A stretch of DNA of 64,000 nucleotides from Patescibacteria group bacterium (GCA_025999275.1 AP024680.1:318393-382392), one strand, 5' to 3'; shown: positions 18,047 to 49,896, counted from the first letter of the stretch. Notes: generated by a model not told the origin, from the sequence alone. A program made the numbers and translations.

Positions 18047-18047
18047 T

Positions 18048-33041: not shown

Positions 33042-33059
33042 CAAGGTCCGTCCTTGTCA
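33039..33059. terminator. GC-rich palindromic hairpin, family B (bidirectional position)
   Basis: TGACAAGGTCCGTCCTTGTCA incorporates the pyrH TGA and sits between convergent pyrH and the GT-C gene. Confidence 0.55.
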
Positions 33060-36080: not shown

Positions 36081-36124
36081 TTTAGTTTGCTTCAGAAGGC
36101 ATCTTGGTAGTATAATTTCTTTAT

Positions 36125-36631
36125 ATGAAAGATAAAAAGGATATTATTTTTATAAGTCCGACGAAGGGGCAGGTTGGAATTCAAGATCTAGTCAAAGAGT
36201 TGGCGGATTTTGTAGAAGATGATCCTATGGCTTTTTATCGGTTGGTAATTGGGACAGATTCACAAGTCCATAGAATTAATGGTAAATCAGAGGTTGATTT
36301 TGTGACTGCTGTTGTGGTTCATCGACAAGGCCGTGGAGCAAGGTATTTTTGGCATAAGAAAAAAGTTTTTGTTAAGCAACCGGTATTAAGAGACAGGATT
36401 TATACAGAAACCTTGATGTCTTTGGATTTGGCTCAAAGAATAGTCCCTGAGGTTAGGAAGTTAATTACGGCAGCGAAATATGATCTTGAGATACATATTG
36501 ATGTTGGTGCTTTGGGCCAAACCCGAGAAATGATTAAGGAAGTTGTGGGGATGGTTAGTGGCAATGGTTTTGTAGCAAAGACTAAACCTGAAAGTTGGGG
36601 AGCCTCTTCTGTTGCCGACAAGCACACTTGA
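36125..36631 (+). CDS. Hypothetical protein, possibly RNase-H-like fold (YkuK/DUF458-like)
   Basis: LVIGTDSQ...VDFVTAVVVHRQGRGARYFW...IHIDVG pattern. Identification is from memory of the family and is weak. Confidence 0.3.
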   Translation: MKDKKDIIFISPTKGQVGIQDLVKELADFVEDDPMAFYRLVIGTDSQVHRINGKSEVDFVTAVVVHRQGRGARYFWHKKKVFVKQPVLRDRIYTETLMSLDLAQRIVPEVRKLITAAKYDLEIHIDVGALGQTREMIKEVVGMVSGNGFVAKTKPESWGASSVADKHT

Positions 36632-36680: not shown

Positions 36681-37352
36681 TTACTGCACTAGAAGATGCT
36701 TTATTTTTTCCAGTTTCTTCTGATATTCAGCGTGATTAAATGTAAATTCTCTAAACTTTTCGATGTTTCTGAAGTTTGATAGAACTATTTGTTTGAGGTC
36801 GCATATGTTTGATTCGTTTTCGGAGTTAAGATACTCTGCTAGCGAAGACCATGTATATTGTTCCAGTTTTTTCAGATCCTTAATTATCCCCGAAGAGTAA
36901 GGGTTAAGGTGGATATATCTTGAAAGATGTTTTATTTGTTCATCTGTTTCTACCAGAACAGATTTGAATCTGTTTTCAAATAAAGGGCCGGTTCTTTTGT
37001 GTTTAGTATTGAAGAATTTTGTGTAACTTGTTAGGAATCTGTTCATGAATGAACTTATACCATTATCTTCTTCTTGCCTAAGAATAAAATGGAAGTGATT
37101 TGGCATTAGACAGTATGCTACAAAGGAAACGGATTTGTTTTTTAGTGTGGATTTTATCTCTTCTTTTATTTGTGGTTTTAGTGATCTGAAAGAGGAGAAT
37201 TTGACTGGATAGTCTGAAAATCGGCAATAGTCAATTATGTCTATAAATCTTTGGTAATCTCTTTTATCAAGAAATATCGGAGCTCGGTTTATTCCTCTGT
37301 TGAAGATATGATATATGTGATTTGTAACAAGAGGAGTTTTTCTTATGGGCAT
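36681..37352 (-). mobile_element. REP-associated tyrosine transposase (RAYT / TnpA-REP, IS200/IS605-like Y1 HUH transposase)
   Basis: HUH motif MPNHFHFIL and the catalytic-Tyr region RYIHLNPY. 223 aa. Flanked by inverted REP copies at 36635 and 37367. Confidence 0.7.
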
Positions 37353-37439: not shown

Positions 37440-38189
37440 ATGAAAGGAGTGGTTTTGGCTGGAGGGTTGGGGACCAGGCTTTACCCTCTGACTTACGCTA
37501 CCAATAAACACCTTCTCCCGGTTTATGATAAACCGATGGTTTTTTACCCAATTAATACCTTGGTAAGAGCAGGAATTAAGGAAGTTTTGGTGGTTACAGG
37601 TGGGCCTTATGCTGGTCATTTTGTTAGAGTTTTAAAAAATGGCAAGGAGTTGGGTCTGAAGCATTTGGAGTATGCATATCAGGAAGGTGAGGGTGGAATT
37701 GCAGCTGCTCTTTCTTTGTGTGAAGATTTTGCCGATGGTGATTCTTTGTGTGTTATTTTAGGTGATAATTGCACAGATGCTGACATTTCAAAACAGGTTA
37801 AAGGTTTTAAAGATGGCGCTATGGTATTTCTCAAAAAAGTTCCTGATCCAGAGCGTTTTGGAGTGCCGGTTTTTAATGAGAATAGAGAAATAATCAAAAT
37901 AGAAGAGAAACCTAAAAAGCCAAAATCAAACTTTGCTGTTACTGGGCTTTATATGTATGATTTTTCTGTCTTTTCTAAAATTAAATCTGTTAAACCTTCT
38001 GCTCGAGGAGAATTGGAAATTACAGATGTTAACAATCTTTATATAAAAGAGAAGAAACTAAGGTGGGCGATTTTAAAGGGTTATTGGCGTGATGCTGGAA
38101 CTTTTCAAACTCTTTTTGAGGCTAATAAATATTGGGCTAGGAAGGCAGCTTTTAAGGACCGAATCTTTAAAAGTAGTCGCACAATTTAA
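37440..38189 (+). CDS. rmlA: Glucose-1-phosphate thymidylyltransferase-like sugar nucleotidyltransferase
   Basis: MKGVVLAGGLGTRLYPLT is the nucleotidyltransferase G-loop, and a heads the dTDP-sugar operon. A TATAAT at 37424 suggests a short or absent leader. The alternative start is 37419. Confidence 0.8.
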   Translation: MKGVVLAGGLGTRLYPLTYATNKHLLPVYDKPMVFYPINTLVRAGIKEVLVVTGGPYAGHFVRVLKNGKELGLKHLEYAYQEGEGGIAAALSLCEDFADGDSLCVILGDNCTDADISKQVKGFKDGAMVFLKKVPDPERFGVPVFNENREIIKIEEKPKKPKSNFAVTGLYMYDFSVFSKIKSVKPSARGELEITDVNNLYIKEKKLRWAILKGYWRDAGTFQTLFEANKYWARKAAFKDRIFKSSRTI

Positions 38190-38192
38190 TAC

Positions 38193-39206
38193 ATGAAATT
38201 ATTAGTAACAGGTGGCGCTGGATTTATAGGTAGTAATTTCATTAGCTATTGGTTGAAAAATAACCCTAAAGATAAAATTATTAATTTTGATAAATTAACT
38301 TACGCTGGCCATTTGTCTTCTACTTCCGATTTTGCTTCTAATAAGAACTATACTTTTGTTAGAGGTGATATTTGTAATTCCAAATTGGTTGATGAGGTTA
38401 CCAAAAATGTTGATATAATAGTTCATCTTGCAGCTGAAAGCCATGTTGATCGTTCTATTTTTGGCCCTGCCACTTTTATCAAAACTAATGTTTTAGGTAC
38501 ACAGACTCTTCTTGATTCAGCTCTAAAAAATAAAATTAAGCTTTTTTGCCATATATCAACGGATGAAGTTTTTGGTGCCCTTCCACTTGATAGTAGGAAG
38601 AAATTTAATGAAAAAACTCCTTATAATCCTCGTTCTCCTTATTCTGCAAGTAAAGCTGCTTCAGATCACTTAGTCCGTGCCTATTTTACGACTTATGGCT
38701 TGCCGGTTGTTATTACCAATTGTTCTAACAATTTTGGTCCTTACCAGGATCCTGAAAAATTTTTGCCAAGAATGATTACCAATTTAATTGATAATAAGCC
38801 TATTCCTATCTATGGGGATGGTAAGTATGTTCGTGATTGGCTTTATGTTCTTGACCATTGTCGTGCAATTGAGATGGTTATTAAGAAGGGTAAGGTTGGA
38901 GAAACTTATTTAATTGGTGGTTTAACAAAAGATATCAGTAATTTGGAAGTGGCAAAGATGCTTCTTAAGATCTTTAATAAAGACAATTCTTATATTCAGT
39001 TTGTAAAAGACAGGCCTGGTCATGACAGACGCTATGCAGTTGATTGGAGTAAGATTAAAAACGACCTTGGTTTCAAGCCAGAGTTTGATTTTAGTGTTTG
39101 GCTTGAAAAGACAGTTGAATGGTATAAGGCTAATGAGTGGTGGTGGCGGCCTCTTAAGAAAAAAGCGGAAAAATTTTACCAAAAAACAAACAATAACCGA
39201 AAATGA
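38193..39206 (+). CDS. rmlB: dTDP-glucose 4,6-dehydratase
   Basis: Extended SDR with TGGAGFIGS, the catalytic YSASKAASD, and DWLYVLDHCRAI. 337 aa. Confidence 0.9.
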   Translation: MKLLVTGGAGFIGSNFISYWLKNNPKDKIINFDKLTYAGHLSSTSDFASNKNYTFVRGDICNSKLVDEVTKNVDIIVHLAAESHVDRSIFGPATFIKTNVLGTQTLLDSALKNKIKLFCHISTDEVFGALPLDSRKKFNEKTPYNPRSPYSASKAASDHLVRAYFTTYGLPVVITNCSNNFGPYQDPEKFLPRMITNLIDNKPIPIYGDGKYVRDWLYVLDHCRAIEMVIKKGKVGETYLIGGLTKDISNLEVAKMLLKIFNKDNSYIQFVKDRPGHDRRYAVDWSKIKNDLGFKPEFDFSVWLEKTVEWYKANEWWWRPLKKKAEKFYQKTNNNRK

Positions 39207-39775
39207 AGCAAATTTCCGAACATATTTACGAAACAAGTTTAAATGGTCTTTACAAAATAGAGATGCCGACTTTCAAAGACGAAAGAGGTTTCTTCCATGA
39301 AGTTTTTCGTTTAGATGAACTTAAGAAAGCAACCGGAGTTGATTTCAAACCAGTTCAATGGAATCATTCGCTTTCCAAACCAAAAGTAATAAGAGCTATT
39401 CACACGGAAGGTTGGAATAAACTTGTTTATCCGGTAACTGGCAAGATGTTTGCTGTCATTGTTGATGTTCGTGAAGAAAGTCCGACTTTTGGGAAATATG
39501 AAGAGTTTGTGTTTGATAATACTTCTTATGATTCTTCTCATTTTGCTCTATTTATATCCAAGGGGTTGGGCAATTCTATTTGTGCTTTTGGCAGCCAACC
39601 TGTTAATTACATGTATTTGGTTGATGAGTATTGGGATAATAGCAAGGCGCAAGGTATAGCTTGGGACGATCCTGATATTGGTATTAAATGGCCTGTTGAA
39701 GATCCTATTATTTCGGAAAGAGACAAAAATAATCCTCGTTTGAGTGATCTTTTTCCTCATAAATATGGCAAGTAA
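39203..39775 (+). CDS. rmlC: dTDP-4-dehydrorhamnose 3,5-epimerase
   Basis: Cupin-fold RmlC: FHEVFR...VQWNHS...RAIHTEGWNKLVYPVTGKMFAVIVDVR. 4-nt overlap with rmlB. Confidence 0.85.
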   Translation: MKQISEHIYETSLNGLYKIEMPTFKDERGFFHEVFRLDELKKATGVDFKPVQWNHSLSKPKVIRAIHTEGWNKLVYPVTGKMFAVIVDVREESPTFGKYEEFVFDNTSYDSSHFALFISKGLGNSICAFGSQPVNYMYLVDEYWDNSKAQGIAWDDPDIGIKWPVEDPIISERDKNNPRLSDLFPHKYGK

Positions 39776-40673
39776 AGTGTATGTTACTGGTTCTTCTGGT
39801 TTGGTAGGTTCTAGGTTTGTTGAGTTATACTCACAAAAATACAAACTGTTAACTCCAGAGATTGATAGGCTTAATATTTTAGATTTTAACTCTCTTAAAG
39901 AATTCATTTCTGTTAGAAAACCTAATGCTGTTGTTCACTTTGCTGCTTTTACTGATGTTTCTGCAGCTGAGAATCAGAGAGGAGATGAAAATGGCGACTG
40001 TTTTGGGATCAATGTCTTGGGAACAGAGAATTTGGTCAAACTTTGTGAAGAAAATAAGATTTTTATGATTCACATTTCAACAGACATGGTTTTTCCGGGC
40101 AGCGAGGAATATAAAGGGCCATATGATGAGGACGACAAGCCTGAAAATACTCCTGATAAATTAACATGGTATGGCTTTACCAAAAGCGAGGCTGAAAGAA
40201 GACTTTTGTCAATATTGCCTAACAATTCTGCCATCTTAAGAATCATTTATCCTGTTAGAGCCAGTTTTGAAAGAAAACTTGATTATTTGAGAAAGCCGCT
40301 TTCTCTTTTTGATCAAGGCAAACTTTACCCTCTTTTTGACGATCAACAAATTTCTGTTTCTTTTATAGACGAGGTGGCTTTGGCGATCGACAAAATCCTT
40401 GAAGATAGGATTTCTGGTGTTTATCATTGTTCTTCAGTTGATACAACCACACCTTTTGAAATTGTTTCTTATCTAATAGAAAAAGCAAGGGGAAAAGGGG
40501 CAGAAGTTAGGAGGTCTTCTTTGGCTGAGTTTCTAAAAAGGGTGGGTAATTCTTTAAGGTATCCTCGCTGGGGAGGTCTGAAGGTTGAAAAAACTCAAGG
40601 AAAGCTAAATATTAAATTTAGTACTTGGCGTCAGATTGTGGATAAACTTATAGAGCAAGGTATTCGAGCTTAA
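39765..40673 (+). CDS. rmlD: dTDP-4-dehydrorhamnose reductase
   Basis: VYVTGSSGLVGSRF Rossmann motif at the N-terminus and RmlD-like length. Start at MASKVYV, overlapping the rmlC stop. Confidence 0.75.
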   Translation: MASKVYVTGSSGLVGSRFVELYSQKYKLLTPEIDRLNILDFNSLKEFISVRKPNAVVHFAAFTDVSAAENQRGDENGDCFGINVLGTENLVKLCEENKIFMIHISTDMVFPGSEEYKGPYDEDDKPENTPDKLTWYGFTKSEAERRLLSILPNNSAILRIIYPVRASFERKLDYLRKPLSLFDQGKLYPLFDDQQISVSFIDEVALAIDKILEDRISGVYHCSSVDTTTPFEIVSYLIEKARGKGAEVRRSSLAEFLKRVGNSLRYPRWGGLKVEKTQGKLNIKFSTWRQIVDKLIEQGIRA

Positions 40674-40685
40674 TTATGACTAACT

Positions 40686-41351
40686 TTATTTCAGTTTTCT
40701 AGACTTTTCAAGAGCCTTTTCTTTTCTCCACTTTTCGATTTCTTTGTGATTGCCTGAAAGTAATATTTCAGGTACTTTCCACCCTTTGTAATCTCTTGGT
40801 TGCGTGTATTGAGGATAATCAAGCTCGTCTCCTTTTGAAAAAGACTCATTTTCAATTACTTCCTTTTCCAAGACTCCTGGCAGAAGTCTTACAATTGAGT
40901 CAACTAAAACCATAGCTGGTATTTCTCCCCCTGTTAAAATATATTTTCCAATCGAAATCTCCTCGTCTATCAGGTGATCTATTATTCTTTGATCAACTCC
41001 TTCATAATGCCCTGCAATCAAAATAAGATGATCAATTTTAGATAAACTTTTGGCCATTTTTTGGTCAAAAACTTTTCCCTGTGGACTTAAAAGAATAATT
41101 TTTCTTTTTTTGGCTTTAGTCTTGTTTTTGATTTTCTCTAAGGCCTTGTCTATAGGTTCGACTTTTAGTATCATCCCAGGGCCGCCACCAAAAGGCCTAT
41201 CATCAGTGGTTTTGTGTTTGTCAGTTGCCCAGTCTCTTATGTTGTGAATGTTAATTTTTACTGCTTTTATATCCTGTGCTTTTTTAAGCATTGATTGGCT
41301 AAATGGGCCATCAAACATACGAGGAAAAAGTGTTAGAATATCAATTATCAT
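40686..41351 (-). CDS. trmD: tRNA (guanine37-N1)-methyltransferase
   Basis: [18 protein letters not shown]-terminus, and the SPOUT-fold motifs [10 protein letters not shown] and [12 protein letters not shown]. Confidence 0.9.
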
Positions 41352-41391
41352 ACCCTTATTTTATATTTTTTGAGCTCTAAAAGCCATTTTT

Positions 41392-42939
41392 ATGAAATAT
41401 AAGAATTTTAATAACTTTATTTTTATTTTTCTTATTTTTATTTTTTTATTTTTACTCCGTTTTAATTCTTTTGAGATGCCTTTTGAAAGAGATGAAGGGG
41501 AGTATGCTTATTCGGCTTGGATTTTAAGGCAAGGAATTATGCCATATGAGAATTCTTTTTTGCAAAAGCCACCAATGATAATTTATACCTATTTATTGGG
41601 ACAAATTTTTTTTGGAGATTCAATCTGGCCGCCGCGTTTCTTGGCTTTTATTTCAGTTTTTTTAACAGCACTTGTTATTTATTTTGTGGTTAGAAAAAAT
41701 TATAGTCAGAAAGTTGCTTGGACAAGTGCTTTTTTGACCTCTCTTACTTTGAGTTTTCCTCATTTTACAGCACTTGCTGCCAACACCGAGATATTTATGA
41801 TTTTATTTTTGGTTGTTTCTTTTGCTCTTTATTTTTATTATCAAGAAAAGGCTTCTTTTTGGGTTTGGTTTCTGTCAGGGGTTTTTTCATCTATTTCAGT
41901 TTTTTATAAGCCAATTGCTGTTTTTCCTTTTTTATTTTTGTATTCTTTTTGGATTTATAGATTATTAAAACAAAAAATTTCTTTTACTACTATTTTTATT
42001 AATATTTTTGCTGCTTCTTTTAGCTTTTTGTTTACTTCGTTATTAATTCTCTTGCCATTTTTGATTTCTGGGAAAATTAATTTTTTGGTTGAAAGTGTTT
42101 GGCAGTTTAATTTATCTTACAGCCAGGTTTGGAAAAGTTATGGACTGTCGGGTTTTTATTTGCAAATGGGCAAATTAATTCGCGTTTGGTGGATTTTAAT
42201 TCTATTATTTTTGTTTTTTCTTTTTTCAAAAAGCAAAGATAAGAATCTTATTTTAGGTCTTATTATTAGCTCTATTTTTTCAACCTTTAGGACTACGATA
42301 GGCCATTATTACCTTACTTTTATGCCATTTTTATCTATCGCTGCCGCTTTGGGTTTGTCGGAGTTGTATTCTCTTTTATCTAAGAAATTTAGGGTTAATT
42401 TTGTATATATTTTTTTAATTGTTTTATTTTTAATGCTTTATCCTTTAAGAGTTCAGTTTGGATTGAAACCAGAAGGATTAAGTCTTTGGATATATGGTTT
42501 TGAAAATCCATTTAATGAATCAAAGTTAATGTCAGAGAAAATAGTGGAAAACAGTTTACCTAGTGATTACATTTTTGTTGTTGGAAGTGAGCCGCAAATT
42601 TATTTTTACAGCCAAAGGAGATCGCCAACTAGGTTTGTTATAACCTATCCTTTAAATATTTATTCTCCCAAGAGGGAAGAGTATCAGTCTGAGGTGGTGG
42701 AAAATTTAAAAAATTTGAGGCCAAAATTTATAGTTTATTCAAATAAAGAGGCTAGTGGTGTTTGGGAAAAGGATTCTCCAAGAATCTTTATTGATTATAT
42801 TAATAATCTTATTTCTAAAGATTATTATTTGATTGGTGGATCTGTTTGGGGTAGGAATAAAGTAATTTGGCAAGATAAGTTGACAGACGAAGAAAAGAAA
42901 GAATCAAGTTTGCTATTATACAAATTGAGAAATGAATAA
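41392..42939 (+). CDS. GT-C-like polytopic membrane protein (putative glycosyltransferase)
   Basis: At least 10 TMs, with the early loop RDEGEYAYSAWILRQG (DE..Y-type motif) as in ArnT/PMT-like enzymes. Confidence 0.45.
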   Translation: MKYKNFNNFIFIFLIFIFLFLLRFNSFEMPFERDEGEYAYSAWILRQGIMPYENSFLQKPPMIIYTYLLGQIFFGDSIWPPRFLAFISVFLTALVIYFVVRKNYSQKVAWTSAFLTSLTLSFPHFTALAANTEIFMILFLVVSFALYFYYQEKASFWVWFLSGVFSSISVFYKPIAVFPFLFLYSFWIYRLLKQKISFTTIFINIFAASFSFLFTSLLILLPFLISGKINFLVESVWQFNLSYSQVWKSYGLSGFYLQMGKLIRVWWILILLFLFFLFSKSKDKNLILGLIISSIFSTFRTTIGHYYLTFMPFLSIAAALGLSELYSLLSKKFRVNFVYIFLIVLFLMLYPLRVQFGLKPEGLSLWIYGFENPFNESKLMSEKIVENSLPSDYIFVVGSEPQIYFYSQRRSPTRFVITYPLNIYSPKREEYQSEVVENLKNLRPKFIVYSNKEASGVWEKDSPRIFIDYINNLISKDYYLIGGSVWGRNKVIWQDKLTDEEKKESSLLLYKLRNE

Positions 42940-44578
42940 GAATTTGAGTTTTTCTAAAATCTTTTTAGATGGTAAAAGGCCATTTCTTTGGATTTTTGGT
43001 TTTGGTTTTGTTCTTTATTTGAGAGGGCTTTTTTTTGGTTTTAGTTATTTTGATGACAATGTTTTAATTTTAGAAAATTTGTTTTTTTTGAGGGATTTAT
43101 CTAACTTGCCAAGGGCTTTTACCACCGAGGTCTTTCATATTCTTCACTCTTCAGCTGCTTATTATCGTCCGCTTTTGACTATTTCCTATATGTTTGATGC
43201 GGTTGTTTCAGGTGAGAATCCTTTTGTTTATCACTTGACTAGCATTCTTATTCATCTTTTTGTTTCAATTTTTGTTTTTATTTTCTTTGAAAAGTTAAAA
43301 ATAAAAAGATCTGTAGCTTTTTTGTTGAGTTTTATTTTTCTAGTTCATCCGGTTTTGGCGCAAGCTGTAGTTTGGATTCCTGGTAGAAATGATTCGTTGC
43401 TAGCTTTTTTTGTTTTGCCGACTTTTATTTTCTTAATCAATTTTCTTGAGAATAAAAAATTAAGAGATCTCTGGCTTTCGATTTTGTTTTTTGGGTTTTC
43501 TTTGTTTACTAAAGAATCTTCTGTTTTTATTCCATTTTTAATTTTGTTTTTTGGGTTTTCTTTGTCTGAGAATAAAAAACTATTTATTAAGACTTTGCCA
43601 GTCCTATTTTTTGGCTGGGGGGTTATCTTTTTACTTTGGTTTTATCTAAGAAGCATTGCTCTTTCTTCTAGTCCTGTTCCATATACATTTTTTGGTTCAA
43701 TTAAAAGCATTTTAAATAATATGTCTGCTGTTTTTCTTTATTTGGGTAAAGTTATTTTGCCTTTTAATCTTTCTGTTTTGCCCACTCTTCAAGACTCAAT
43801 TTTGTGGTATGGCTTTATCTCTGTGTTTTTAATTATTTTCTTTTTTGTTGTTTCTAAAAACAAAAATTATTGGATAATTGCCTTTGGAATTGCTTGGTTT
43901 TTAGTTTTTCTTCTGCCTTCTTTTATTAGGCCCACTTCTTATGTTTCTGATTTCTTAGAACATAGAATATATCTGCCTTTGGTGGGTTTGTTTTTGATTT
44001 TTAGTCAGTTTAGTTTTGTTAAGAATTTTGACTTTGAAAAGAAATCAAACTTATATTTGTTTTTTTTGATTGTGTTTTTTTTCTCGACAATTACTTTTTT
44101 GCATATTGGGAAGTTTAAAGATAGAGTTACTTTTTGGTCGTTTGCGGTTAAGACTACTCCACACCACCCCCTTGCTCATAAGAATTTAGGGGCTATGTAT
44201 TATCTTGAAGGGAATTATGACTTAGCCAAAAACGAGTTTATCAAAGCTGCTGAGCTTAATTTCCAGGAGCCGATGATTCACAATAATTTGGGGCTAATTT
44301 ATATGAGAGAGGGAAAATTTGATAAAGCTGAGGATGAATTCAATTTGGAGCTTAAAGTAAACCCTAATTATGATAATGCACTTTTTAATTTGGGTCTTTT
44401 GTATTGGAATCAGGATAAAAAAGACAAAGCGGCAGAGATGTGGATTAAGACAATCTCTGTTAATCCTGATCATAAAGATGCGCTAAAAGGTCTGGCTGTT
44501 TATTATAGCGAGATTAAAGATTCGACTAAGGCAAATTATTTCTATCAGGAGGCTTTAAAAAGGGGAGTTAGATTCTAG
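42932..44578 (+). CDS. TMTC-like membrane glycosyltransferase with C-terminal TPR repeats
   Basis: N-terminal polytopic domain with the YYRPL motif (DUF1736/TMTC-like). The C-terminus has 4-5 TPR units, e.g. NLGAMYYLEGNYDLAKNEF and NLGLIYMREGKFDKAEDEF. Confidence 0.5.
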   Translation: MNKNLSFSKIFLDGKRPFLWIFGFGFVLYLRGLFFGFSYFDDNVLILENLFFLRDLSNLPRAFTTEVFHILHSSAAYYRPLLTISYMFDAVVSGENPFVYHLTSILIHLFVSIFVFIFFEKLKIKRSVAFLLSFIFLVHPVLAQAVVWIPGRNDSLLAFFVLPTFIFLINFLENKKLRDLWLSILFFGFSLFTKESSVFIPFLILFFGFSLSENKKLFIKTLPVLFFGWGVIFLLWFYLRSIALSSSPVPYTFFGSIKSILNNMSAVFLYLGKVILPFNLSVLPTLQDSILWYGFISVFLIIFFFVVSKNKNYWIIAFGIAWFLVFLLPSFIRPTSYVSDFLEHRIYLPLVGLFLIFSQFSFVKNFDFEKKSNLYLFFLIVFFFSTITFLHIGKFKDRVTFWSFAVKTTPHHPLAHKNLGAMYYLEGNYDLAKNEFIKAAELNFQEPMIHNNLGLIYMREGKFDKAEDEFNLELKVNPNYDNALFNLGLLYWNQDKKDKAAEMWIKTISVNPDHKDALKGLAVYYSEIKDSTKANYFYQEALKRGVRF

Positions 44579-44582
44579 TTTT

Positions 44583-46220
44583 ATGATTTCTCAAAGATTA
44601 ATTTTTATTTTAAGATTTTCTTTTTTCTTTCTAGTTTTTGTTTTTGGTTTGTTTGTTTTCAAAAATGTAAAGTACGGTGTCTTGTGGAATGATGAAGCAG
44701 AAACAGTGATGTATGCAAAAAGCATAATTAAGTATGGATACCCCAAGGTTCATTACGGCAAGAATATACTCAATGTTTCTGAAACAAAAGATCCTAATAT
44801 AGGTGTCAAAAATACAAACGATGCCTGGATTTATATTTCTTCTTGGGGTTCTTATTATTTTGCAGTACCTTTTGTAAAGATAGCTGATAGATTTTATGAT
44901 ATTTATGTTAAGACAGGAATTCTAAGAGCAGCCTTTGCCTTTTTTGGTTTTTTGGGAGTCCTTATCTTTGGCTATACCGGTTCTTTGTTTTTTCAGGATA
45001 AGTTAAGGAAGCTTTTGTTTATTAACATCTTTTTAATTCTGGAAATTTTATCTACACCTTTGCTTTTACATATTCGCCAAGTGAGACATTACCCAATAAC
45101 CATCTTTTTGGTATCTCTAATTTTCCTTTTGTTGGTTAGAAAAAATGTTTTTAGTGAAAAAATAAACGGTTTTATTTATCAGACATCTCTGTTTTTATTA
45201 TTATTTTTATTGATGAATGTTTATTTTCCTGCCTTTATTTCTATTTTTATATTTATTACTTTTTTTTATTTTTTAAAATTCGTTGTCTCGCCAGTAAAGA
45301 TTAATGTTGTTAAAGAGAATGTTTTTATTGTTTTAAATACTATAATTTTGGTTCCCTATTTTTCTTTCTTTGAGTTTTTTAAAATATCAAGCATTATCTC
45401 TTCTGAATTTGGTTATAATTTTTCCAGGTTTATTTTTAATTTTAAGACAGCCTTTTTATTTTTTGTAAAATCTGAGTATCTTCTATTAGTCTTTTTGCTC
45501 TTTTTGATTATTTTAATTTTTATTAAGAGAGATAAAAAACTATTAGAGGATAAATTGGTAGTTGTTTCTTTGGGAATTTTTTTATACCTTTTTATTGCTT
45601 TAGTTGTTTGTTCAAGAATTCCTTATTTTTTTGAGAGATATTATATTTTCTTGCAGCCGTTTATTGTTCTTGCCTTTTTGTTTTTGTCTTTTAAAACTTA
45701 TGATTTATTTGATCAAAGAGGGACAAAAAACAGGAATTTTCTATTTTTTTATTTTTTGTTTTTGGCTTTAATCCTCAATCTCGTATTTAAGTTTGAGAAT
45801 ATAAAAGGCTTTTTATATGAGATTAATCATCCTTATCGTGGTCCAATGGATTATTTAGTTGGATACATTATTGAAAACTACAAAGAACCAAGCTCTCTTG
45901 TTATAGCAACCAATTATGAAGAATATGTACTTATGTATTATTTAGATAGTAAGGTTGTTGTTGGTTATGTTGGTAACAACCTTGATGAAGATAAAAAATC
46001 TAACCCTGATATTGTTGTGATTAGGAAAAATAGGCCTAATTTTGTTTCTGAGCTTAATGATTTTTTGAAAAAAGGAAATTATAAAGAAGTTATCTTAAAT
46101 GTTTATGATTATCAGGTTAATAATATTCCAGAAACAACTTTACCCTTAAAGCATCTTTTTAAATTACCAGAACCAAAGGATAATTCAGAAAGGCTTAGTC
46201 TTTTTGTGCGTCAAGAATGA
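44583..46220 (+). CDS. GT-C-like polytopic membrane protein
   Basis: WNDEAETVMYAKSIIKYGYP loop motif after TM1. At least 12 TMs. 545 aa. Confidence 0.4.
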   Translation: MISQRLIFILRFSFFFLVFVFGLFVFKNVKYGVLWNDEAETVMYAKSIIKYGYPKVHYGKNILNVSETKDPNIGVKNTNDAWIYISSWGSYYFAVPFVKIADRFYDIYVKTGILRAAFAFFGFLGVLIFGYTGSLFFQDKLRKLLFINIFLILEILSTPLLLHIRQVRHYPITIFLVSLIFLLLVRKNVFSEKINGFIYQTSLFLLLFLLMNVYFPAFISIFIFITFFYFLKFVVSPVKINVVKENVFIVLNTIILVPYFSFFEFFKISSIISSEFGYNFSRFIFNFKTAFLFFVKSEYLLLVFLLFLIILIFIKRDKKLLEDKLVVVSLGIFLYLFIALVVCSRIPYFFERYYIFLQPFIVLAFLFLSFKTYDLFDQRGTKNRNFLFFYFLFLALILNLVFKFENIKGFLYEINHPYRGPMDYLVGYIIENYKEPSSLVIATNYEEYVLMYYLDSKVVVGYVGNNLDEDKKSNPDIVVIRKNRPNFVSELNDFLKKGNYKEVILNVYDYQVNNIPETTLPLKHLFKLPEPKDNSERLSLFVRQE

Positions 46221-46966
46221 GAGATAAAAAATTGTCTAAAATTTTGGTACTAATTCCTACATATAACGAATTTGACAATATTGGTGTTTTGATAGGGGAG
46301 ATTGAGAGATTAAAAATTCCAAATCTTGATATTTTGGTGGTGGATGATGGTTCAAGTGACGGTACAGATAGATTGGTTATCAAGCTTTCCAAAAAGTATA
46401 GGAACATTTTTTTGTTTGAGAGGGGTAAAAAAATGGGAATAGGTAGTGCCCATATTGATGGGATAAATTGGGCATATAGAAAGGGCTATGAGAGGCTTAT
46501 TTCTATGGATGCTGATTTAACCCATTCGCCTAAGTATTTTAAAGATTTAATTATAGCTTCTTATAAATATGATGTTGTAATAGCGTCAAGGCATCTTGCT
46601 AGAAATAGTATGATTGGTTGGTCATTTAAGAGAAAAATTATAACTTTTTTGAATCACAATTTAGTTAAATATATTCTTGGCTTAAACTACGACACATCTA
46701 ATTCTTTTAGAATTTATAGGTTAGATAAAATTCCAAGAAAAATTTTTAATCTTATTTCTTCTTCAGGTTATTCATTCTTTTTTGAAAGCCTTAAGATACT
46801 TAAATTAAATTGTTTTACAATTGGCGAAGTCCCTGTTGTTATGAGAGAGAGGCAAAAGGGGGTTTCAAAACTTTCTTTTCGTGATTTTTTTCTGCATTTT
46901 TGGTTTATGATGAGACTAATTTTTATGATTTTGTTTAGGAGAAGTTGTTTGTTGGCAAATCAATGA
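46217..46966 (+). CDS. GT2 polyprenol-phosphate glycosyltransferase (dolichol-P-mannose synthase-like)
   Basis: GT-A motifs ILVLIPTYNE, VVDDGSSDGT, the DXD ISMDADL, and a C-terminal TM pair. Confidence 0.8.
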   Translation: MRDKKLSKILVLIPTYNEFDNIGVLIGEIERLKIPNLDILVVDDGSSDGTDRLVIKLSKKYRNIFLFERGKKMGIGSAHIDGINWAYRKGYERLISMDADLTHSPKYFKDLIIASYKYDVVIASRHLARNSMIGWSFKRKIITFLNHNLVKYILGLNYDTSNSFRIYRLDKIPRKIFNLISSSGYSFFFESLKILKLNCFTIGEVPVVMRERQKGVSKLSFRDFFLHFWFMMRLIFMILFRRSCLLANQ

Positions 46967-47625
46967 ATTCTAAAGACTGGGATTATTACTGGTCTGGTGA
47001 AAGAAAGCGTATTTGGTATGATTTTTTAGCCTGGTTTTATAGAAAGTTTATAATTTCTCCTTCAGAGAGATTCTTTTTGAGAAAGCATTTTAAAAAAGGA
47101 TCAATTTTGTTGCATGCTGGTTGTGGTAGTGGTGAGACTGATAAATGGATAAATAATTTTTTTAAAATAGTTGCTGTTGACTTTTCCAAGAAAGCTCTAG
47201 AAAAGTATAAGAAAAACAATCCTTATGTTTACAAAATTATTCTTTCAGATATTGAAAAAATGCCGTTTAGAGAAAGTACTTTTGATGGTATTTACAATCT
47301 TGGAGTTTTTGAGCATTATTCCAAGCAAAATGTCTTAAAAATATTAAAAGAATTTCATCGTGTTTTGAAAAAGAACGGGAAAGTTGTTATTTTTTGGCCA
47401 CCAGAATTTGGTTTTAGTGTTTTTTTCTTCAAAGCTCTTTTCTTATTCCTAAAAACTTTTGTTCCTTATCAAAAAGTTAAACTTTATCCTGATGAGGTGA
47501 ATCGTCTAAAATCAAAAAAAGAGGCTGAATTTTATATGAGGAAATCTGGATTTAAACTTATAGATTATTATTTTGGAGTTTGTGATCTTTTTACTTATTG
47601 TGTTTTAGTTGGGCAGAAGGCCTAA
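46963..47625 (+). CDS. Class I SAM-dependent methyltransferase
   Basis: Motif I LLHAGCGSGE, then DGIYNLGVFEHY. Start at the Met forming an ATGA overlap with the GT2 stop. Confidence 0.55.
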   Translation: MNSKDWDYYWSGERKRIWYDFLAWFYRKFIISPSERFFLRKHFKKGSILLHAGCGSGETDKWINNFFKIVAVDFSKKALEKYKKNNPYVYKIILSDIEKMPFRESTFDGIYNLGVFEHYSKQNVLKILKEFHRVLKKNGKVVIFWPPEFGFSVFFFKALFLFLKTFVPYQKVKLYPDEVNRLKSKKEAEFYMRKSGFKLIDYYFGVCDLFTYCVLVGQKA

Positions 47626-48878
47626 TTTCTAGGATAGATCTCCATTTTTGGTAGAGGGAAGATAAATTTTCCTCCCTTTTTGATAAAATCTTTTTCCCTT
47701 TTTATAAATTCTTCTTTGAAATACCAAGGAAGTGCAAGAAAATAATCCGGCATTTCTTTTCTAGCTTCATCTTCAGAAATTATTGGAATATCTGTTCCAC
47801 TTATTGTTTTTCCCCACTTGAAAGGATTTTTGTCGGCGGCGGCTTTTATGAGTTTGTTGTTTAACTTTAGATAACTAATTATAGTATTTCCTCTGGTTGA
47901 AGCTCCGTAGATATATATTTTTTTGCCCTTTTTGGTTTCCTTTTTTAGGAAATCTTTAATTTTGTTTAGATTTTTGGAAGCTCTTTCTGCGAAACTTTTG
48001 TAAGTTTCTAGTTTTTCTAGATATTTTTCTTTTTTAATTATGCTTTCTATAAATTTCAGATGTTTACTACCTCCAACACTACTACCTCTTTTTCTTATCC
48101 ATGTTCTAAAACTTCCTCCATTTACATTGTTAAACTTGATGTCAAAAACCTCGAAACCATTTTTATCAAGTATAAAATTAAGTGATTTTAGAGAGTAATA
48201 TTCTAAATGTTCGTGAACAATGTTGTCTATTGCATTTTGTTCTAACATTTTTCCCAAGTAATTTTGTTGAATTATAAATATTCCGTTTTCATCTAGACAG
48301 TTATAAACATCTTTAAGGAATTTATTTGGGTCTGAAAGGTCGTAAAACATGGCTATTGCTGTAATGATTTTTGCTTTTTTGTTGGTCTTTTCTAAGAATT
48401 GTCTTTTATTGAAGAAATTATTTATCAAAAAGAATTTGTTTTTATTTAATCTGGTTAACTTTTCTTTTGCAATTTTGATGGTATTTGATGAAGGATCAAA
48501 CCCAAAAAGATTTATTCCCACATCTTTGTAAAACGATAGGAGCGTACCATCATTACAACCAATATCTATAACAGTGTCACCTTTTTCAAGTTTTATTATT
48601 TTTTCCGTCTCTTTCACTATTTCTTTAAGTTCCCTTTTCATTTGATTGTTAATGCCTGAGAGATATCCATAATTTTCATTCCACAATAATTTTGGATTTG
48701 TATTTTGTTTGAGCTGTAAAAGTTTGCATTTTTTACAGAATACAAGTTCAAGGGGGATTTTTATATCTCTTCTTTTACTTGAGAAATTAGGAACATTTAT
48801 TTTACCTAGCGAAATTATCTCCTCGAGTACTGGGTTGCCACAAGACCTACAAGATTTAATATTTTTGTAACACTCCAT
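47622..48878 (-). CDS. Sugar C-methyltransferase (TylCIII/NovU-like, Zn-ribbon + class I MTase + C-terminal domain)
   Basis: N-terminal CRSCGN...CKKCKLLQL zinc ribbon, motif I VIDIGCNDGT, and a long C-terminal domain. Start placed at the internal Met MECYKNIK; the ORF extends to 48971. Confidence 0.5.
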   Translation of the reverse strand: MECYKNIKSCRSCGNPVLEEIISLGKINVPNFSSKRRDIKIPLELVFCKKCKLLQLKQNTNPKLLWNENYGYLSGINNQMKRELKEIVKETEKIIKLEKGDTVIDIGCNDGTLLSFYKDVGINLFGFDPSSNTIKIAKEKLTRLNKNKFFLINNFFNKRQFLEKTNKKAKIITAIAMFYDLSDPNKFLKDVYNCLDENGIFIIQQNYLGKMLEQNAIDNIVHEHLEYYSLKSLNFILDKNGFEVFDIKFNNVNGGSFRTWIRKRGSSVGGSKHLKFIESIIKKEKYLEKLETYKSFAERASKNLNKIKDFLKKETKKGKKIYIYGASTRGNTIISYLKLNNKLIKAAADKNPFKWGKTISGTDIPIISEDEARKEMPDYFLALPWYFKEEFIKREKDFIKKGGKFIFPLPKMEIYPRN

Positions 48879-49167
48879 TTGGTTATTATAGCGTGTACTT
48901 AATTTTATATAAATTAGAAGAAAATTGTTAACCAGATTCCAATATAAACCAGTGTTAAGAATTTTATCCAATTAGTGGTGGTTAAGGTCCATTTAGCCTT
49001 TAGCATTTATTTTTATTTGTTTATTGTATTTATTTGTCAGGTTTTATTATTTCTGGTGACAGGTCAAAAATCTTCTAAATATATGTATTTTGGGTAAACT
49101 ATTGATTGACTTTTAAATTTTTTACATGTAATAATAATTTAATTTTTGAATTTAAATTACTTGAATT

Positions 49168-49896
49168 ATGAATATGGAAGATAAACAATCATCATTGAGC
49201 CAAGATATGATTATTGCAGAAGAAAAATTGCAAAAATACAAATTAAGCAATTTTAGACTTTTAATAATTGTTATAATAACCTTCTTGTTGACGATACTGC
49301 TTTTAGGATTGAATGTTTACTTTTGGCAAAATTCAGCAAGTAAGGAAATGGTTAATAATCTGGATCAGAAAATTTCCTCTTTGGATGAAGAGGTTTCAGC
49401 TATAAAGAATATGATGGGTGTGTCGCAACAAGATTTGTCATTAGTTTCTTCTCCTATACCATTATCATCTAAAGATATTAATGTTGATTGGAAAACTTAT
49501 GAGAATGAAAAATATGGAATCAGATTCAAATACCCAAGTTCAATGGTGATAAAAAAATTAGTTACGAACCCTGATCAAGGAGTTCCTGTTCGCTTTTATC
49601 TTGACGATCGTTTGCAAATTATTATTAAAGACCCAAAGTTATCAGAAGAAGAAATTACTAGGAGTTGGGTTGATTTTGAAACTTTAGAGGTTAATGGTCT
49701 GAGGGTTTTGAAAGAGCAGTCTAAAGGTTCTGCTGAAGGAGGCAACCCACCATATCTAATAAGTGTGCAATACGCGGTAGATTTACCAAAAGCAAACTTA
49801 TTTATTATTTATATGGAGCCATCAGAGGGTGATTATAAACAATTTTCTGCGGTATTATATAAAATTATTTCCACCTTAGAATATATAGGGAGTTAG
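49168..49896 (+). CDS. Hypothetical membrane-anchored protein
   Basis: 242 aa with one TM after ~40 aa, then a soluble domain. No motif recognised. Confidence 0.4.
   Translation: MNMEDKQSSLSQDMIIAEEKLQKYKLSNFRLLIIVIITFLLTILLLGLNVYFWQNSASKEMVNNLDQKISSLDEEVSAIKNMMGVSQQDLSLVSSPIPLSSKDINVDWKTYENEKYGIRFKYPSSMVIKKLVTNPDQGVPVRFYLDDRLQIIIKDPKLSEEEITRSWVDFETLEVNGLRVLKEQSKGSAEGGNPPYLISVQYAVDLPKANLFIIYMEPSEGDYKQFSAVLYKIISTLEYIGS

Follow-up and report, generated by a model that had tools for sequence, protein, structure and literature searches.

A Patescibacterial gene cluster encoding a dTDP-deoxysugar pathway, a polyprenyl-phosphate glycosyltransferase type GT2 and three GT-C fold proteins as a candidate extracytoplasmic glycosylation system

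In three-component glycosylation systems, a membrane-associated GT-A enzyme of the GtrB/CsbB/GacI type makes a polyprenyl-P-monosaccharide, a GtrA or Wzx flippase forms the second component, and a GT-C enzyme with an outward acidic motif (YfhO, GtlB or GacL) transfers the sugar outside the cell (PMC8035078). The Pgf system of Streptococcus mutans (PgfS, PgfM1, PgfM2 and PgfE) comprises a single GT-A, two GT-Cs and an enzyme that modifies the sugar, and it glycosylates adhesins and membrane proteins in their Ser/Thr-rich regions; such regions are glycosylated by the streptococcal pairs PgfS/PgfM1 and GtrB/PgtC2 (bioRxiv 10.1101/2024.05.05.592596). In the Arn system, a dedicated nucleotide-sugar modification pathway feeds the lipid-linked donor, which is handled by ArnC (undecaprenyl-phosphate-L-Ara4FN synthase, GT2) and ArnT (lipid A L-Ara4N transferase, GT83). 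In actinobacterial Ppm1/Pmt and mycobacterial GT-C assembly, a polyprenyl-P-sugar synthase feeds several extracytoplasmic GT-Cs modifying glycoproteins and glycolipids (PMC5982138).

The locus analyzed here occupies positions 37440–48878 of a 64-kb stretch of DNA, hereafter the window, from the 786-kb MAG of an ultrasmall bacterium of the Patescibacteria (CPR). It shares with the above systems the pairing of a polyprenyl-phosphate glycosyltransferase type enzyme with GT-C proteins, but differs from the three-component systems in that its GT-Cs are ArnT-like, TMTC-like and uncatalogued rather than of the YfhO type, and in that the locus carries no flippase gene; a domain scan of the ORFs detected none of the GtrA, Wzx or EamA type in the 64-kb window. 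Moreover, a complete dTDP-deoxysugar pathway together with a C-methyltransferase is found only here and not in those systems, including S. mutans Pgf and S. pyogenes GtrB/PgtC2, and the sugars carried by the known ones are Glc, Gal, GlcNAc or GalNAc. The likeness to Arn (the GT2 to ArnC, the profile of the first membrane protein to ArnT) does not go beyond the level of family or clan, and homologues of ArnA, ArnB, ArnD and ArnE/F are absent; to our knowledge, neither an outer membrane nor lipid A is expected in the Patescibacteria lineage.

All eleven ORFs of the locus were uninterrupted, with no internal stops and with preserved catalytic motifs, and every gene that the initial annotation had named was found at the coordinates given there; Pfam, NCBIfam and PDB matches support the gene identities. 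As that annotation had described, rmlA to rmlD follow one another without interruption, all on the + strand and with their stops and starts overlapping, and trmD is convergent with them. The rmlA-like gene (37440–38189) encodes a short, 249-aa form of glucose-1-phosphate nucleotidylyltransferase with a GGLGTR motif (PF00483, NTP_transferase, 182 bits), which covers model positions 1–235 of 286 in TIGR01207 at 243 bits (cut-off 361) and is 72–86% identical to its counterparts in L002, L007 and L009. RmlB, the dTDP-glucose 4,6-dehydratase (38193–39206; GDP_Man_Dehyd/Epimerase), possesses the TDE and Y150xxxK motifs and, at 463.5 bits against TIGR01181 (cut-off 365), is the only one of the four products that reached its NCBIfam equivalog cut-off. 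The rmlC-like dTDP-4-dehydrorhamnose 3,5-epimerase (39203–39775; PF00908, dTDP_sugar_isom, 144 bits; TIGR01221, 122 bits) and the rmlD-like dTDP-4-dehydrorhamnose (4-keto) reductase (39765–40673; PF04321, RmlD_sub_bind, 131 bits; TIGR01214, 130 bits; Y136xxxK motif), whose ATG start at 39765 was taken from the L001 gene call, scored below theirs. The complete four-step dTDP-6-deoxyhexose pathway is encoded at the locus; the exact specificities of RmlA, RmlC and RmlD are not certain given their sub-threshold scores. An IS200-type transposase is inserted beside rmlA.

The trmD gene for tRNA m1G37 methyltransferase (40686–41351, − strand; PF01746, 202 bits) lies between the rml block and the GT-C block. 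Its position is unchanged in all of the CPR relatives, even in those lacking the flanking sugar genes, and is an embedded housekeeping gene outside the pathway. Beyond it, the genes for three membrane proteins (MP1, MP2 and MP3), the GT2 and a SAM methyltransferase form one translationally coupled + strand run (41392–47625) with overlaps of 4–8 bp, MP2 and MP3 being separated by a 4-bp gap. The GC content drops to 28–30% across 42–50 kb; since GC3 is uniform (0.23–0.33), this dip is an effect of amino-acid composition and gives no sign of foreign DNA. At 5 kb downstream of the locus lie conserved genes for polyprenyl-phosphate recycling (bacA, dgkA and PAP2).

The gene on the − strand at 47622–48878, convergent with the SAM methyltransferase gene, had been assigned to the Zn-ribbon sugar C-methyltransferases of the TylCIII/NovU type, and this assignment was substantiated by a full-length match to MtmC (4rv9; 3.6e-52, residues 6–416) and by alignment with TcaB9 (2e-40). 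The protein contains the Zn-ribbon domain Methyltransf_13 (PF08421), PF13489 and Methyltransf_14 (PF08484), four Zn-ribbon Cys residues in two CxxC pairs and an H222EH motif, and is 64% identical to its L009 counterpart; for such a TylC3/MtmC/TcaB9 family enzyme, only an NDP-4-keto sugar can be the substrate. The locus resembles the pathways to C-methyl-branched 6-deoxyhexoses, namely noviose, mycarose (TylC3/MtmC/EryBIII) and Coxiella virenose, in its set of nucleotidylyltransferase, 4,6-dehydratase, RmlC-type epimerase, C-methyltransferase and 4-ketoreductase, and the noviose pathway NovT/W/U/S comprises the same enzyme set. A 2-deoxy product of the mycarose type is unlikely, because a 2,3-dehydratase and a 3-ketoreductase are absent. 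The known sugars of this class differ in being used straight from the nucleotide by cytoplasmic glycosyltransferases and not via GT-Cs; virenose (GMD or RmlB with the TylCIII-like CBU_0691) provides a precedent for an envelope glycan that contains a sugar of this kind (PMC3539893). The class I SAM methyltransferase (46963–47625; Methyltransf_11, 72 bits) has a GCGSG motif and is presumed to be a sugar O-methyltransferase. Its gene adjoins that of the GT2 both here, with a 4-bp overlap, and in L009, L039 and L061, with short overlaps and 42–54% protein identity.

MP1 (41392–42939), MP2 (42932–44578) and MP3 (44583–46220), all on the + strand, are three different GT-C fold glycosyltransferases. 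An acidic pair located 5–12 residues past TM1 (the EL1 motif) was invariant in each of them in alignments of 38–48 homologues; with these acidic loops conserved, the alignments did not refute the initial proposal. MP1, whose start was set at 41392 as required for TM1 to be included, is ArnT/GT39-like: it scored 41 bits against PMT_2 (gathering cut-off 26.1), its family profile matched ArnT 5ezm (E = 1.4e-4) in an alignment that brings the DEGxYA and KPP motifs into register, and E32, R33, D34, E35, G36, E37 and Y38 as well as K59, P60 and P61 were invariant in 43 sequences. It shares an ArnT-like, extracytoplasmic C-terminal alpha/beta domain with MP3. For MP3, no Pfam match was obtained and no Pfam or NCBIfam model of its family exists; its initial assignment came from motifs alone, so that a structure model was needed, and this model confirmed a predicted GT-C fold of an uncatalogued family.

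MP2 (PMT_2, 28.9 bits, plus TPR matches), the product of the conserved core gene of the locus, had been described as TMTC-like with a YYRPL motif and four to five C-terminal TPRs; the motif and approximately 4.5 TPRs were indeed found. This number, about four, is lower than that in TMTCs. Like the eukaryotic protein O-mannosyltransferases TMTC1–4 (GT105), MP2 joins an N-terminal GT-C part to C-terminal TPRs, and it bears most of the TMTC motifs, namely M1 (DD), M2 (SSAAYYRP, like SHKSYRP), M3 (RxD), M4 (KES, like KE(T/Q)) and M7 (EHRIY, like ERxxY), as defined in PMC7801869, which are invariant or nearly so in 38 homologues. The likeness lies in motifs and architecture. No TMTC structure was among the PDB matches listed, and DUF1736 gave no Pfam match in MP2 or any listed homologue. 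The top structural neighbors of MP2 and MP3 were Pmt4 and Pmt2, respectively, recalling the actinobacterial Ppm1/Pmt and mycobacterial systems, although here a MIR domain is absent, mannose is not known to be the donor and the enzymes are not orthologues. A fourth GT-C, earlier flagged as ArnT/PMT-like, is encoded outside the operon (33057–34538, − strand). It was corroborated by its PMT_2 score (69 bits; PMT, 39 bits), approximately 10 TM segments and a DE motif after TM1, and it occupies the same position with 56–64% identity in L007–L011.

The GT2 (46217–46966, + strand; PF00535, Glycos_transf_2, 71 bits) had been proposed to be of the polyprenol-phosphate sugar transferase type, in line with its nearest PDB matches: P. 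furiosus DPMS (5mlz; 8.4e-17, residues 7–234), ArnC (5e-8, residues 6–224) and the GtrB-type sll0501 (7e-7). It contains the D98AD/DADLTHSP motif, its NCBIfam matches, with PgfS among them at 4e-11, were all far below the cut-offs, and the hydropathy of its C-terminal hydrophobic stretch was too weak for a TM segment. Judged by its sequence, the protein is a nucleotide-sugar-dependent GT-A of the polyprenyl-phosphate glycosyltransferase (DPM1/ArnC/GtrB) type. The gene neighborhood favors a dTDP-(C-methyl)deoxyhexose as the sugar it would load. The characterized polyprenyl-phosphate GT2 enzymes that we know of, including the solved relatives of the DPMS, ArnC and GtrB types, take UDP- or GDP-sugars. 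Polyprenyl-P-rhamnose did not turn up in a phrase search of the literature, and in Haloferax, rhamnose is joined to a dolichol-phosphate-linked glycan rather than borne by the carrier as a monosaccharide.

This donor preference and the lack of precedent in that search are consistent with a less likely alternative, in which two pathways run abreast: the rml and C-methyltransferase products would feed a cytoplasmic glycosyltransferase encoded at some other site of the 786-kb genome, which might, for instance, build a wall polysaccharide containing rhamnose, and the GT2 would provide the GT-Cs with a common sugar (Glc, Man, GlcNAc or GalNAc) on polyprenyl phosphate, the clustering of the genes reflecting a general envelope-glycan neighborhood. 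The opposite-strand trmD, which stands between the rml genes and those for the GT-Cs, fits such a separation, as do relatives with the GT-C trio and an incomplete rml set (rmlA and rmlB only in L003, rmlA only in L033) and L008, which has MP2 without any intact rml gene. Against it, the window holds no GT-A or GT-B other than the GT2 among the ORFs of at least 120 aa scanned, and the close relatives L007 and L008 show a joint loss: rml genes, MP1, MP3, the GT2 and both methyltransferases were removed by three separate deletions that spared trmD and MP2, located between the deleted segments. L007 retains rmlA with a 43-aa rmlB fragment and an 84-aa rmlD fragment; in L008, the rml genes are reduced to the 35 initial codons of rmlA. 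Also against it, a cassette of C-methyltransferase, dTDP- or GDP-type dehydratase, GT2, methyltransferase and MP3 recurs in Bacteroidota and other CPR. In the Bacteroidota L039 and L061, MP3 is adjoined by the C-methyltransferase, a 4,6-dehydratase-type SDR, the GT2 (44% identity) and the methyltransferase (42–47%); the C-methyltransferase, GT2 and MP3 also occur together in L013, L017 (dehydratases of the GDP-mannose type), L022 and L050. Counting against a single pathway, only 9 of 80 MP3 loci have a C-methyltransferase within 10 kb, and 8 have an rmlB-like gene.

The integrity of the locus in relatives gave a mixed but largely supportive picture. In three independent metagenome contigs (L009–L011), the order PMT_2(−)-CAP-small ORF-PF04308-rmlABCD-trmD(−)-MP1-MP2-MP3-GT2-MTase-C-MTase(−)-MacB is collinear at about 56% identity, with proteins at 53–86%, and in the distant CPR L002, L003, L023 and L033 the cluster is permuted yet still linked or contiguous, whereas it is deleted in L007 and L008. 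Since close relatives lost the locus, its accessory genes might be on their way out and no longer functional, and this erosion, with the transposase beside rmlA, would suit a decaying remnant or non-catalytic GT-C scaffolds like PIG-U/GAB1, a reading made very improbable by the intact ORFs and motifs, the EL1 motifs invariant across families and the conservation in L009–L011.

As to the acceptor, the same enzymes could instead build or decorate, stepwise from polyprenyl-P-monosaccharides, an extracytoplasmic glycopolymer or glycolipid, comparable to the action of YfhO/GtlB/GacL towards teichoic acids and rhamnan, of ArnT towards lipid A and of the mycobacterial Emb/Aft/PimE/Mpt enzymes towards arabinan and mannan; we regard this as rather improbable. 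Three or four different GT-Cs at one locus would fit initiation, elongation and branching, MP1 is nearest to a lipid-acceptor enzyme, the C-terminal domain of MP1 and MP3 is ArnT-like rather than a protein-binding module, and a LytR_C protein and the recycling genes lie close by; multi-component systems are also best documented on wall polymers (PMC8035078). On the other side, polymer-export or ligase genes were not seen in the locus, and the TPRs of MP2 constitute a protein-recognition module that is also present in TMTC and OGT (PMC7801869). Proteins as acceptors are likewise favored by the conserved position of the upstream PMT_2 gene beside a giant sortase-type surface protein and by envelope proteins of the window (the adhesin, the LTD protein and the LytR_C protein) with Ser/Thr/Pro-rich segments like the streptococcal GT-C targets.

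We therefore favor, with somewhat better than even confidence, a route from an NDP-deoxysugar via a polyprenyl-phosphate carrier to outer-face GT-C transfer, mainly to proteins, for which the GT-A, flippase and GT-C systems offer precedent (PMC8035078). RmlA and RmlB would produce dTDP-4-keto-6-deoxyglucose, the C-methyltransferase would introduce a C3 or C5 methyl branch, and the RmlC-like and RmlD-like enzymes would epimerize and reduce it to dTDP-L-rhamnose and/or a C-methyl-6-deoxyhexose, following the scheme by which noviose, evalose or virenose is made, with an O-methyl group possibly placed on the sugar by the SAM methyltransferase. The GT2 would transfer the sugar from the nucleotide to polyprenyl phosphate at the cytoplasmic face, and a protein encoded outside the window would flip the product. 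At the outer face, MP1 and MP3, the latter being the GT-C that in other phyla accompanies the C-methyltransferase/GT2/methyltransferase cassette, would use this lipid-linked sugar, while MP2 may act independently, probably with a different lipid-linked sugar, on protein acceptors bound via its TPR domain. The most probable acceptors would be Ser/Thr-rich extracytoplasmic segments of surface or membrane proteins, with wall polymers as the alternative. Of the interpretation initially offered, the gene identities were upheld by matches, motifs and alignments, whereas the loaded sugar and the adhesin or LTD protein as acceptors are what we infer. The strategy itself is already known, and the locus is a well-formed version of it, not a new kind of system; it encodes the synthesis of an unusual deoxysugar and very probably loads a sugar on a lipid carrier and attaches it outside the cell via GT-C enzymes, an envelope glycosylation capacity in which the PMT_2 gene outside the operon likely shares.

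Each gene named in the initial annotation was found where that annotation had placed it, as judged from the ORF listing and from Pfam and NCBIfam scans, and none of the locus ORFs contained an internal stop. The contiguous forward-strand genes rmlA (37440-38189), rmlB (38193-39206), rmlC (39203-39775) and rmlD (39765-40673) are met by the convergent trmD (40686-41351, reverse strand), beyond which a translationally coupled forward-strand run begins with three polytopic membrane proteins, MP1 (41392-42939), MP2 (42932-44578) and MP3 (44583-46220), continues with the glycosyltransferase GT2 (46217-46966) and ends with a class I SAM methyltransferase, MTase (46963-47625). A convergent sugar C-methyltransferase, C-MTase (47622-48878, reverse strand), closes the locus, and a fourth GT-C gene, assigned by Pfam to the PMT_2 family, lies upstream (33057-34538, reverse strand). 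The catalytic motifs GGLGTR, TDE/YxxxK, YxxxK, DAD, GCGSG, two CxxC pairs and HEH were present in the locus proteins.

RmlA, RmlB, RmlC and RmlD each carried the right Pfam domain together with the catalytic motifs. RmlB scored above its NCBIfam equivalog cut-off (463.5 against 365.1), and RmlA (243 against 361), RmlC (122 against 156) and RmlD (130 against 224) scored below theirs; RmlC and RmlD are divergent, and RmlA, with 249 aa, is of a short form. Since the rmlA forms of relatives measure 237-239 aa, the short RmlA was regarded as a lineage trait and not as damage. The longest rmlA ORF (TTG 37251) overlaps an IS200/IS605-type Y1 transposase ORF (36681-37352, reverse strand; PF01797, 47 bits) situated between the PF04308 gene and rmlA, and rmlA in fact begins with the ATG at 37440; the transposase does not occupy this position in the close CPR relatives L007-L011.

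C-MTase matched PF08421 (36 bits), PF13489 (81 bits) and PF08484 (143 bits), and displayed an N-terminal four-Cys Zn ribbon, a SAM Rossmann domain, a C-terminal domain and a catalytic His. It aligned over its full length with MtmC (3.6e-52), both CxxC pairs and the HEH motif being matched, and end to end with TcaB9 and another sugar 3-C-methyltransferase (5t6b/5t64); the solved relatives so matched are 3-C-methyltransferases or TcaB9 by name, within a comparison set that holds no 5-C-methyltransferase. TylC3/MtmC-type enzymes act on NDP-4-keto sugars, and the only 4-keto intermediates available at the locus are the products of RmlB and RmlC, so that a C-methyl-6-deoxyhexose would be the logical product. 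Because no 2,3-dehydratase is present at the locus, a mycarose-type 2-deoxy sugar appears unlikely. Noviose synthesis is a parallel route to a C-methyl-6-deoxyhexose. A pathway to such a sugar has also been proposed for Coxiella virenose (PMC3539893). Next to C-MTase (48879-49896), a 289-bp spacer of 22% GC precedes a 242-aa ORF (49168-49896), which carries a TM segment at its N-terminus, matches no family and was found only in the window genome and the locus L001; in the relative L009, C-MTase directly abuts MacB.

Hydropathy indicated at least 7, 10 and 11 TM-like segments in MP1, MP2 and MP3, respectively. The initial annotation had tied the GT-C reading of these proteins to conserved acidic catalytic loops, and homologue alignments bore this out: the first loop after TM1 (EL1) contains an invariant acidic pair in MP1 (D34 E35, 43 sequences), MP2 (D41 D42, 38 sequences) and MP3 (D37 E38, 48 sequences), and the upstream PMT_2 protein shows DE near residue 32. 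The pair follows the first hydrophobic segment by 5-12 residues in each of the four GT-C proteins, and on the basis of homology is taken to face outward. Against a Pfam gathering cut-off of 26.1 bits, PMT_2 scored 41.0 in MP1, 28.9 in MP2 and 69.1 in the upstream gene product. MP1 homologues bear the NCBI names GT39 or ArnT-family, and a profile of 43 of them matched ArnT (5ezm) with an E value of 1.4e-4, aligning the ArnT active-site DEGRYA with the invariant RDEGEYAY of MP1 and the phosphate-binding KPP as well.

In MP2, where PMT_2 only just passed the threshold and Pfam identified approximately four TPRs, we found invariant equivalents of the TMTC motifs M1 (DD), M2 (YYRP), M3 (RxD), M4 (KES) and M7 (EHRxY), as these motifs, M1-M7, are defined in PMC7801869; M5 (DW) was doubtful, with only D288...W292. 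The KES motif aligns with the phosphate-binding position of TMTC as the KPP of MP1 does with that of ArnT. Searched against PDB, MP2 matched only TPR proteins. DUF1736 (PF08409) was absent from MP2 at E<=0.01 and from the precomputed Pfam lists of 120 homologues, and MP2 is thus TMTC-like in architecture without being filed as a TMTC; assignment as a true TMTC (GT105) was not adopted, the PF08409 segment being missing.

MP3 had no match in Pfam, NCBIfam or PDB sequences, and none of 48 family members matched a GT-C Pfam model, even at E<=0.1. Nevertheless these 48 sequences share an invariant W35, D37 and E38 in the loop that follows TM1, and an hhalign comparison of the MP3 and MP1 profiles gave a probability of 95% (E 2.8e-8) with the C-terminal alpha/beta domain included. 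The link of MP3 to the PMT_2 clan runs through this profile-profile alignment and through a PMT_2-annotated MP3 paralogue of 25% identity in the Omnitrophota locus L004; the MP3 profile gave no signal against single MP1 or PMT_2 sequences in hhalign, and PDB sequence searches with single MP1, single MP3, the MP3 profile and the upstream PMT_2 protein returned nothing useful. The MP3 family is, on this evidence, a distant paralogue of the MP1 family, and MP1, MP2 and MP3 are predicted GT-C glycosyltransferases of three different kinds, which by analogy would use a polyprenyl-(di)phosphate-linked donor.

The seven PDB sequences closest to GT2 were DPMS, ArnC and the GtrB-type sll0501, led by P. 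furiosus DPMS (8.4e-17, residues 7-234), and its DxD motif is D98AD within DADLTHSP, which carries the DADLxxxP signature (DADLQxPP-type). Since its best solved relatives are all polyprenyl-phosphate glycosyltransferases, GT2 belongs with this subgroup by GT-A type, DxD motif and closest similarity, and is a predicted polyprenyl-phosphate glycosyltransferase of the DPM1/DPMS, GtrB, ArnC and CsbB group. Its NCBIfam equivalog matches were all far under their cut-offs, so the donor sugar is not readable from the sequence. The GT2 C-terminus contains a hydrophobic stretch (approximately residues 224-241) that stays under the KD 1.6 hydropathy threshold; in distant relatives GT2 is fused to GtrA_DPMS_TM.

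In known multi-component transmembrane glycosylation, a GT-A enzyme, a flippase and a GT-C enzyme cooperate (PMC8035078). By this scheme, GT2 as the GT-A enzyme would form a polyprenyl-phosphate-linked monosaccharide, a flippase would move it across the membrane, and the GT-C proteins would transfer the sugar outside. The locus fits the GT-A plus GT-C arrangement; unlike three-component systems of the Gtr/Csb/Pgf type, it does not encode the flippase alongside. No match to PF04138, EamA or Polysacc_synt was found among 51 scanned window ORFs, and a flippase gene may lie in another part of the genome. In streptococci, PgfS/PgfM1 and GtrB/PgtC2 attach O-linked sugars to disordered, Ser/Thr-rich stretches of adhesins and of membrane proteins, a LytR-family protein among them (bioRxiv 10.1101/2024.05.05.592596), and by analogy the Ser/Thr-rich segments in the window, namely the adhesin N-terminus, two LTD-protein linkers and the tail at the C-terminus of a LytR_C protein, are candidate acceptors for the GT-C proteins of the locus. 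The candidate stretches singled out are aa 36-75 in the adhesin, aa 177-216 in the LTD protein and aa 207-246 in the LytR_C protein.

The LytR_C-domain membrane protein (18046-18786, forward strand) closes with a tail of 40 aa that is rich in Ser, Thr and Pro (aa 207-246, 62% S+T+P), which resembles the C-terminal disordered regions glycosylated by streptococcal GT-C systems, that of a LytR-family protein included. A 2017-aa surface-protein ORF (26266-32319, forward strand) with SpaA and DUF11/CLIPPER domains and a C-terminal TM segment was listed from TTG, its true start being uncertain; a sortase is encoded nearby (25469-26098). A giant surface protein likewise adjoins the upstream PMT_2 gene in L008, L010 and L011, and L007 has a smaller CARDB/CLIPPER surface protein near PMT_2.

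Identical gene order was found in L009-L011, three independent metagenome contigs with 53-86% protein identity, as PMT_2(-)-CAP-85-aa ORF-PF04308-rmlABCD-trmD(-)-MP1-MP2-MP3-GT2-MTase-C-MTase(-)-MacB, and the locus was also present on a Logan contig from DRR290133. MP2 is 100% identical to a protein encoded on a 785,860-bp contig of a Patescibacteria MAG, which places the window in a small CPR genome. In the distant CPR loci L002, L003, L023 and L033, the flanks and families are retained in a changed order (...rml-trmD(-)-MTase-MTase-MP3-MP1-MP2-...-GT2); C-MTase is missing from all four, L003 has only rmlA and rmlB, and L033 only rmlA. L007 and L008, whose distance from the window is comparable to that of L009, have lost nearly all cluster genes: L007 keeps rmlA with a 43-aa rmlB fragment and an 84-aa rmlD fragment (8755-9194), L008 (complete genome CP055308.1) keeps only the first 35 rmlA codons at 97% identity (8943-9047), and both retain trmD and MP2, followed directly by MacB. 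These pseudogene fragments show the glycan cluster of a small CPR genome in the course of reductive loss. Three separate deletions (rml; MP1; MP3 to C-MTase) spared the intervening essential trmD and MP2, which implies that the full cluster is ancestral and that rml, MP1, MP3, GT2 and the two methyltransferases behave as a single dispensable unit; the survival of MP2 implies for it a function independent of that unit. The single, jointly assembled locus of the initial annotation thus holds as a collinear block in L009-L011, and gives way to permutation in the distant CPR loci and to deletion in L007 and L008. The manner of loss and rearrangement, read from gene content and order, argues for functional coupling of the cluster genes.

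Several features of the surrounding DNA were also recorded. A triad (34831-36631) made up of a CAP-domain protein that has two TM regions, a three-TM ORF of 85 aa and a PF04308 (RNaseH_like) protein directly precedes rml/trmD; all CPR relatives examined have it there, the distant L002, L003, L023 and L033 among them. The 85-aa ORF (35823-36080) was considered as a GacJ-like partner of GT2 and set aside as an idea only, since some 10 kb separate it from GT2 and it invariably accompanies the CAP gene. On the other side, a polyprenyl-phosphate recycling and wall block (54306-56605), consisting of bacA (undecaprenyl-diphosphatase), a dgkA-like kinase (reverse strand), a YkuD L,D-transpeptidase and a PAP2 phosphatase, is kept downstream in all close relatives. 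Over 42-50 kb the GC content dips to 28-30%, only codon positions 1 and 2 falling, as a result of Phe/Ile/Lys/Asn-rich membrane (and Lys/Asn/Ile-rich) proteins; foreign origin of this segment was rejected, GC3 being flat across genes (0.23-0.33). A promoter and terminator scan of 36-50.2 kb was uninformative, with counts equal to the shuffled expectation (53 against 52.9; 9 against 9.3).

The MP3 profile, searched against 1.84 billion representatives, retrieved 423 clusters (counted at 50% identity) at E<=1e-30 and 2,073 at E<=1e-3, and a scan of 185,579 species genomes gave 130 relatives. The 80 loci kept (L012-L091) all derive from MAGs or single-cell genomes, with zero isolates, and come from CPR, Bacteroidota, Myxococcota, Desulfobacterota, Nitrospirota, Omnitrophota and Margulis-/Saganbacteria; the family spans at least eight phyla. 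Homologues of the window proteins lay within 10 kb of MP3 as follows, many of the 80 loci being contigs that end early: GT2 in 29/80, MP1 in 22/80, MP2 in 14/80, MTase in 13/80, C-MTase in 9/80 and an rmlB-like dehydratase in 8/80. In the Bacteroidota loci L039 and L061, MP3 stands beside C-MTase, a 4,6-dehydratase-type SDR, GT2 (44% identical) and MTase (42-47%). In the Nomurabacteria locus L017 (12403-17768), C-MTase, GT2, MP3, MP1 and MP2 occur with two GDP-mannose-4,6-dehydratase-family genes (450 and 354 bits) and a NUDIX gene, in place of rmlABCD, and the same module is thus met on a different nucleotide-sugar route. The recurrent set is accordingly a 4,6-dehydratase, C-MTase, a DPM1-like GT2 and MP3, with either nucleotide carrier. 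When GT2 identity was compared with C-MTase presence across loci, only L039 and L061 stood out, and no general claim is made.

Other neighbours of MP3 varied. In L039 (4296-13741), large DUF7657/DUF7654 proteins flank the MP3 homologue, and in L006 (6559-8004) and L061 (8929-10353) its neighbour is a flavin amine-oxidase/NAD_binding_8 protein, which in L061 shows a weak UDP-galactopyranose-mutase (GLF) match; these may be further MP3 partners. In L004 (1679-9740), a block of neighbouring genes between pilin-like (N_methyl) and PilM/PilO genes encodes a PMT_2+TPR protein, the MP3 paralogue, a B12-binding radical SAM enzyme, a SAM methyltransferase and MP3, an arrangement that hints at a link of GT-C proteins with further methylation chemistry and type IV pili.

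The initial annotation read the locus as a route on which a dTDP-deoxysugar is loaded onto polyprenol phosphate and transferred at the outer face. Its gene identities, the GT-C nature of the membrane proteins (from Pfam, alignments and profiles) and the cluster linkage stand; the lipid-linked deoxysugar route has the standing of a proposal. We lean slightly towards a pathway in which GT2 would load the rml/C-MTase sugar onto polyprenyl phosphate for flipping and outside transfer by the GT-C proteins. The recurrent cassette is the best evidence joining the branched deoxysugar to the lipid-carrier route, and is correlative and confined to a minority of loci. Against this pathway, the GT-C trio occurs in some relatives without the full rml set, and the missing window flippase and apparently weak GT2 membrane anchor are among its weak points. 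A phrase search of the literature for polyprenyl- or undecaprenyl-phosphate-rhamnose yielded nothing relevant, and no polyprenyl-phosphate-6-deoxyhexose precedent was found; Haloferax dolichol-linked rhamnose was rejected as one, the rhamnose there being part of an oligosaccharide and not carried as a monosaccharide, and a Saccharibacteria pilus paper was rejected as a precedent for CPR glycosylation as it deals with host rhamnose. That rml and C-MTase instead feed another, cytoplasmic transferase while GT2 loads an ordinary sugar is a less probable account, which we would give something over a quarter of the weight. That the acceptor is a wall polymer or glycolipid rather than a protein seems improbable.

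Within the favoured lipid-carrier pathway, a bolder version, rather doubtful at present, holds both that the sugar which GT2 loads onto polyprenyl phosphate is a 6-deoxyhexose, C-methyl-branched (and O-methylated), derived from an NDP-4-keto-6-deoxyhexose, and that the MP3 family is the outside-face transferase dedicated to this donor; C-MTase, dehydratase, GT2, MTase and MP3 would then form a mobile cassette common to CPR bacteria, Bacteroidota and further lineages that are largely uncultured. If true, this would amount to a lipid-linked sugar donor of a new class and to a new family of glycosyltransferases.

CPR/Patescibacteria live as episymbionts, and their surface chemistry, of which next to nothing is known, is likely to be decisive for host recognition. 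The GT-A plus GT-C logic is known; what is new is the joining of three distinct GT-C families, one of them uncatalogued, to a branched-deoxysugar pathway that is variable between close relatives. The locus offers a concrete and testable inventory of a predicted branched deoxysugar pathway, one putative lipid-carrier loading enzyme and four transferases predicted to face outward, which varies between close relatives as serotype loci do. Neither Pfam nor NCBIfam has the GT-C family that MP3 defines, and a model for it would help to annotate many uncultured genomes. If GT2 does load a dTDP- or GDP-derived C-methyl-deoxyhexose onto polyprenyl phosphate, the repertoire of lipid-linked monosaccharide donors would be widened. 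The locus is of use to CPR surface biology and to annotation, and potentially of more if the lipid-linked C-methyl-deoxysugar is real.
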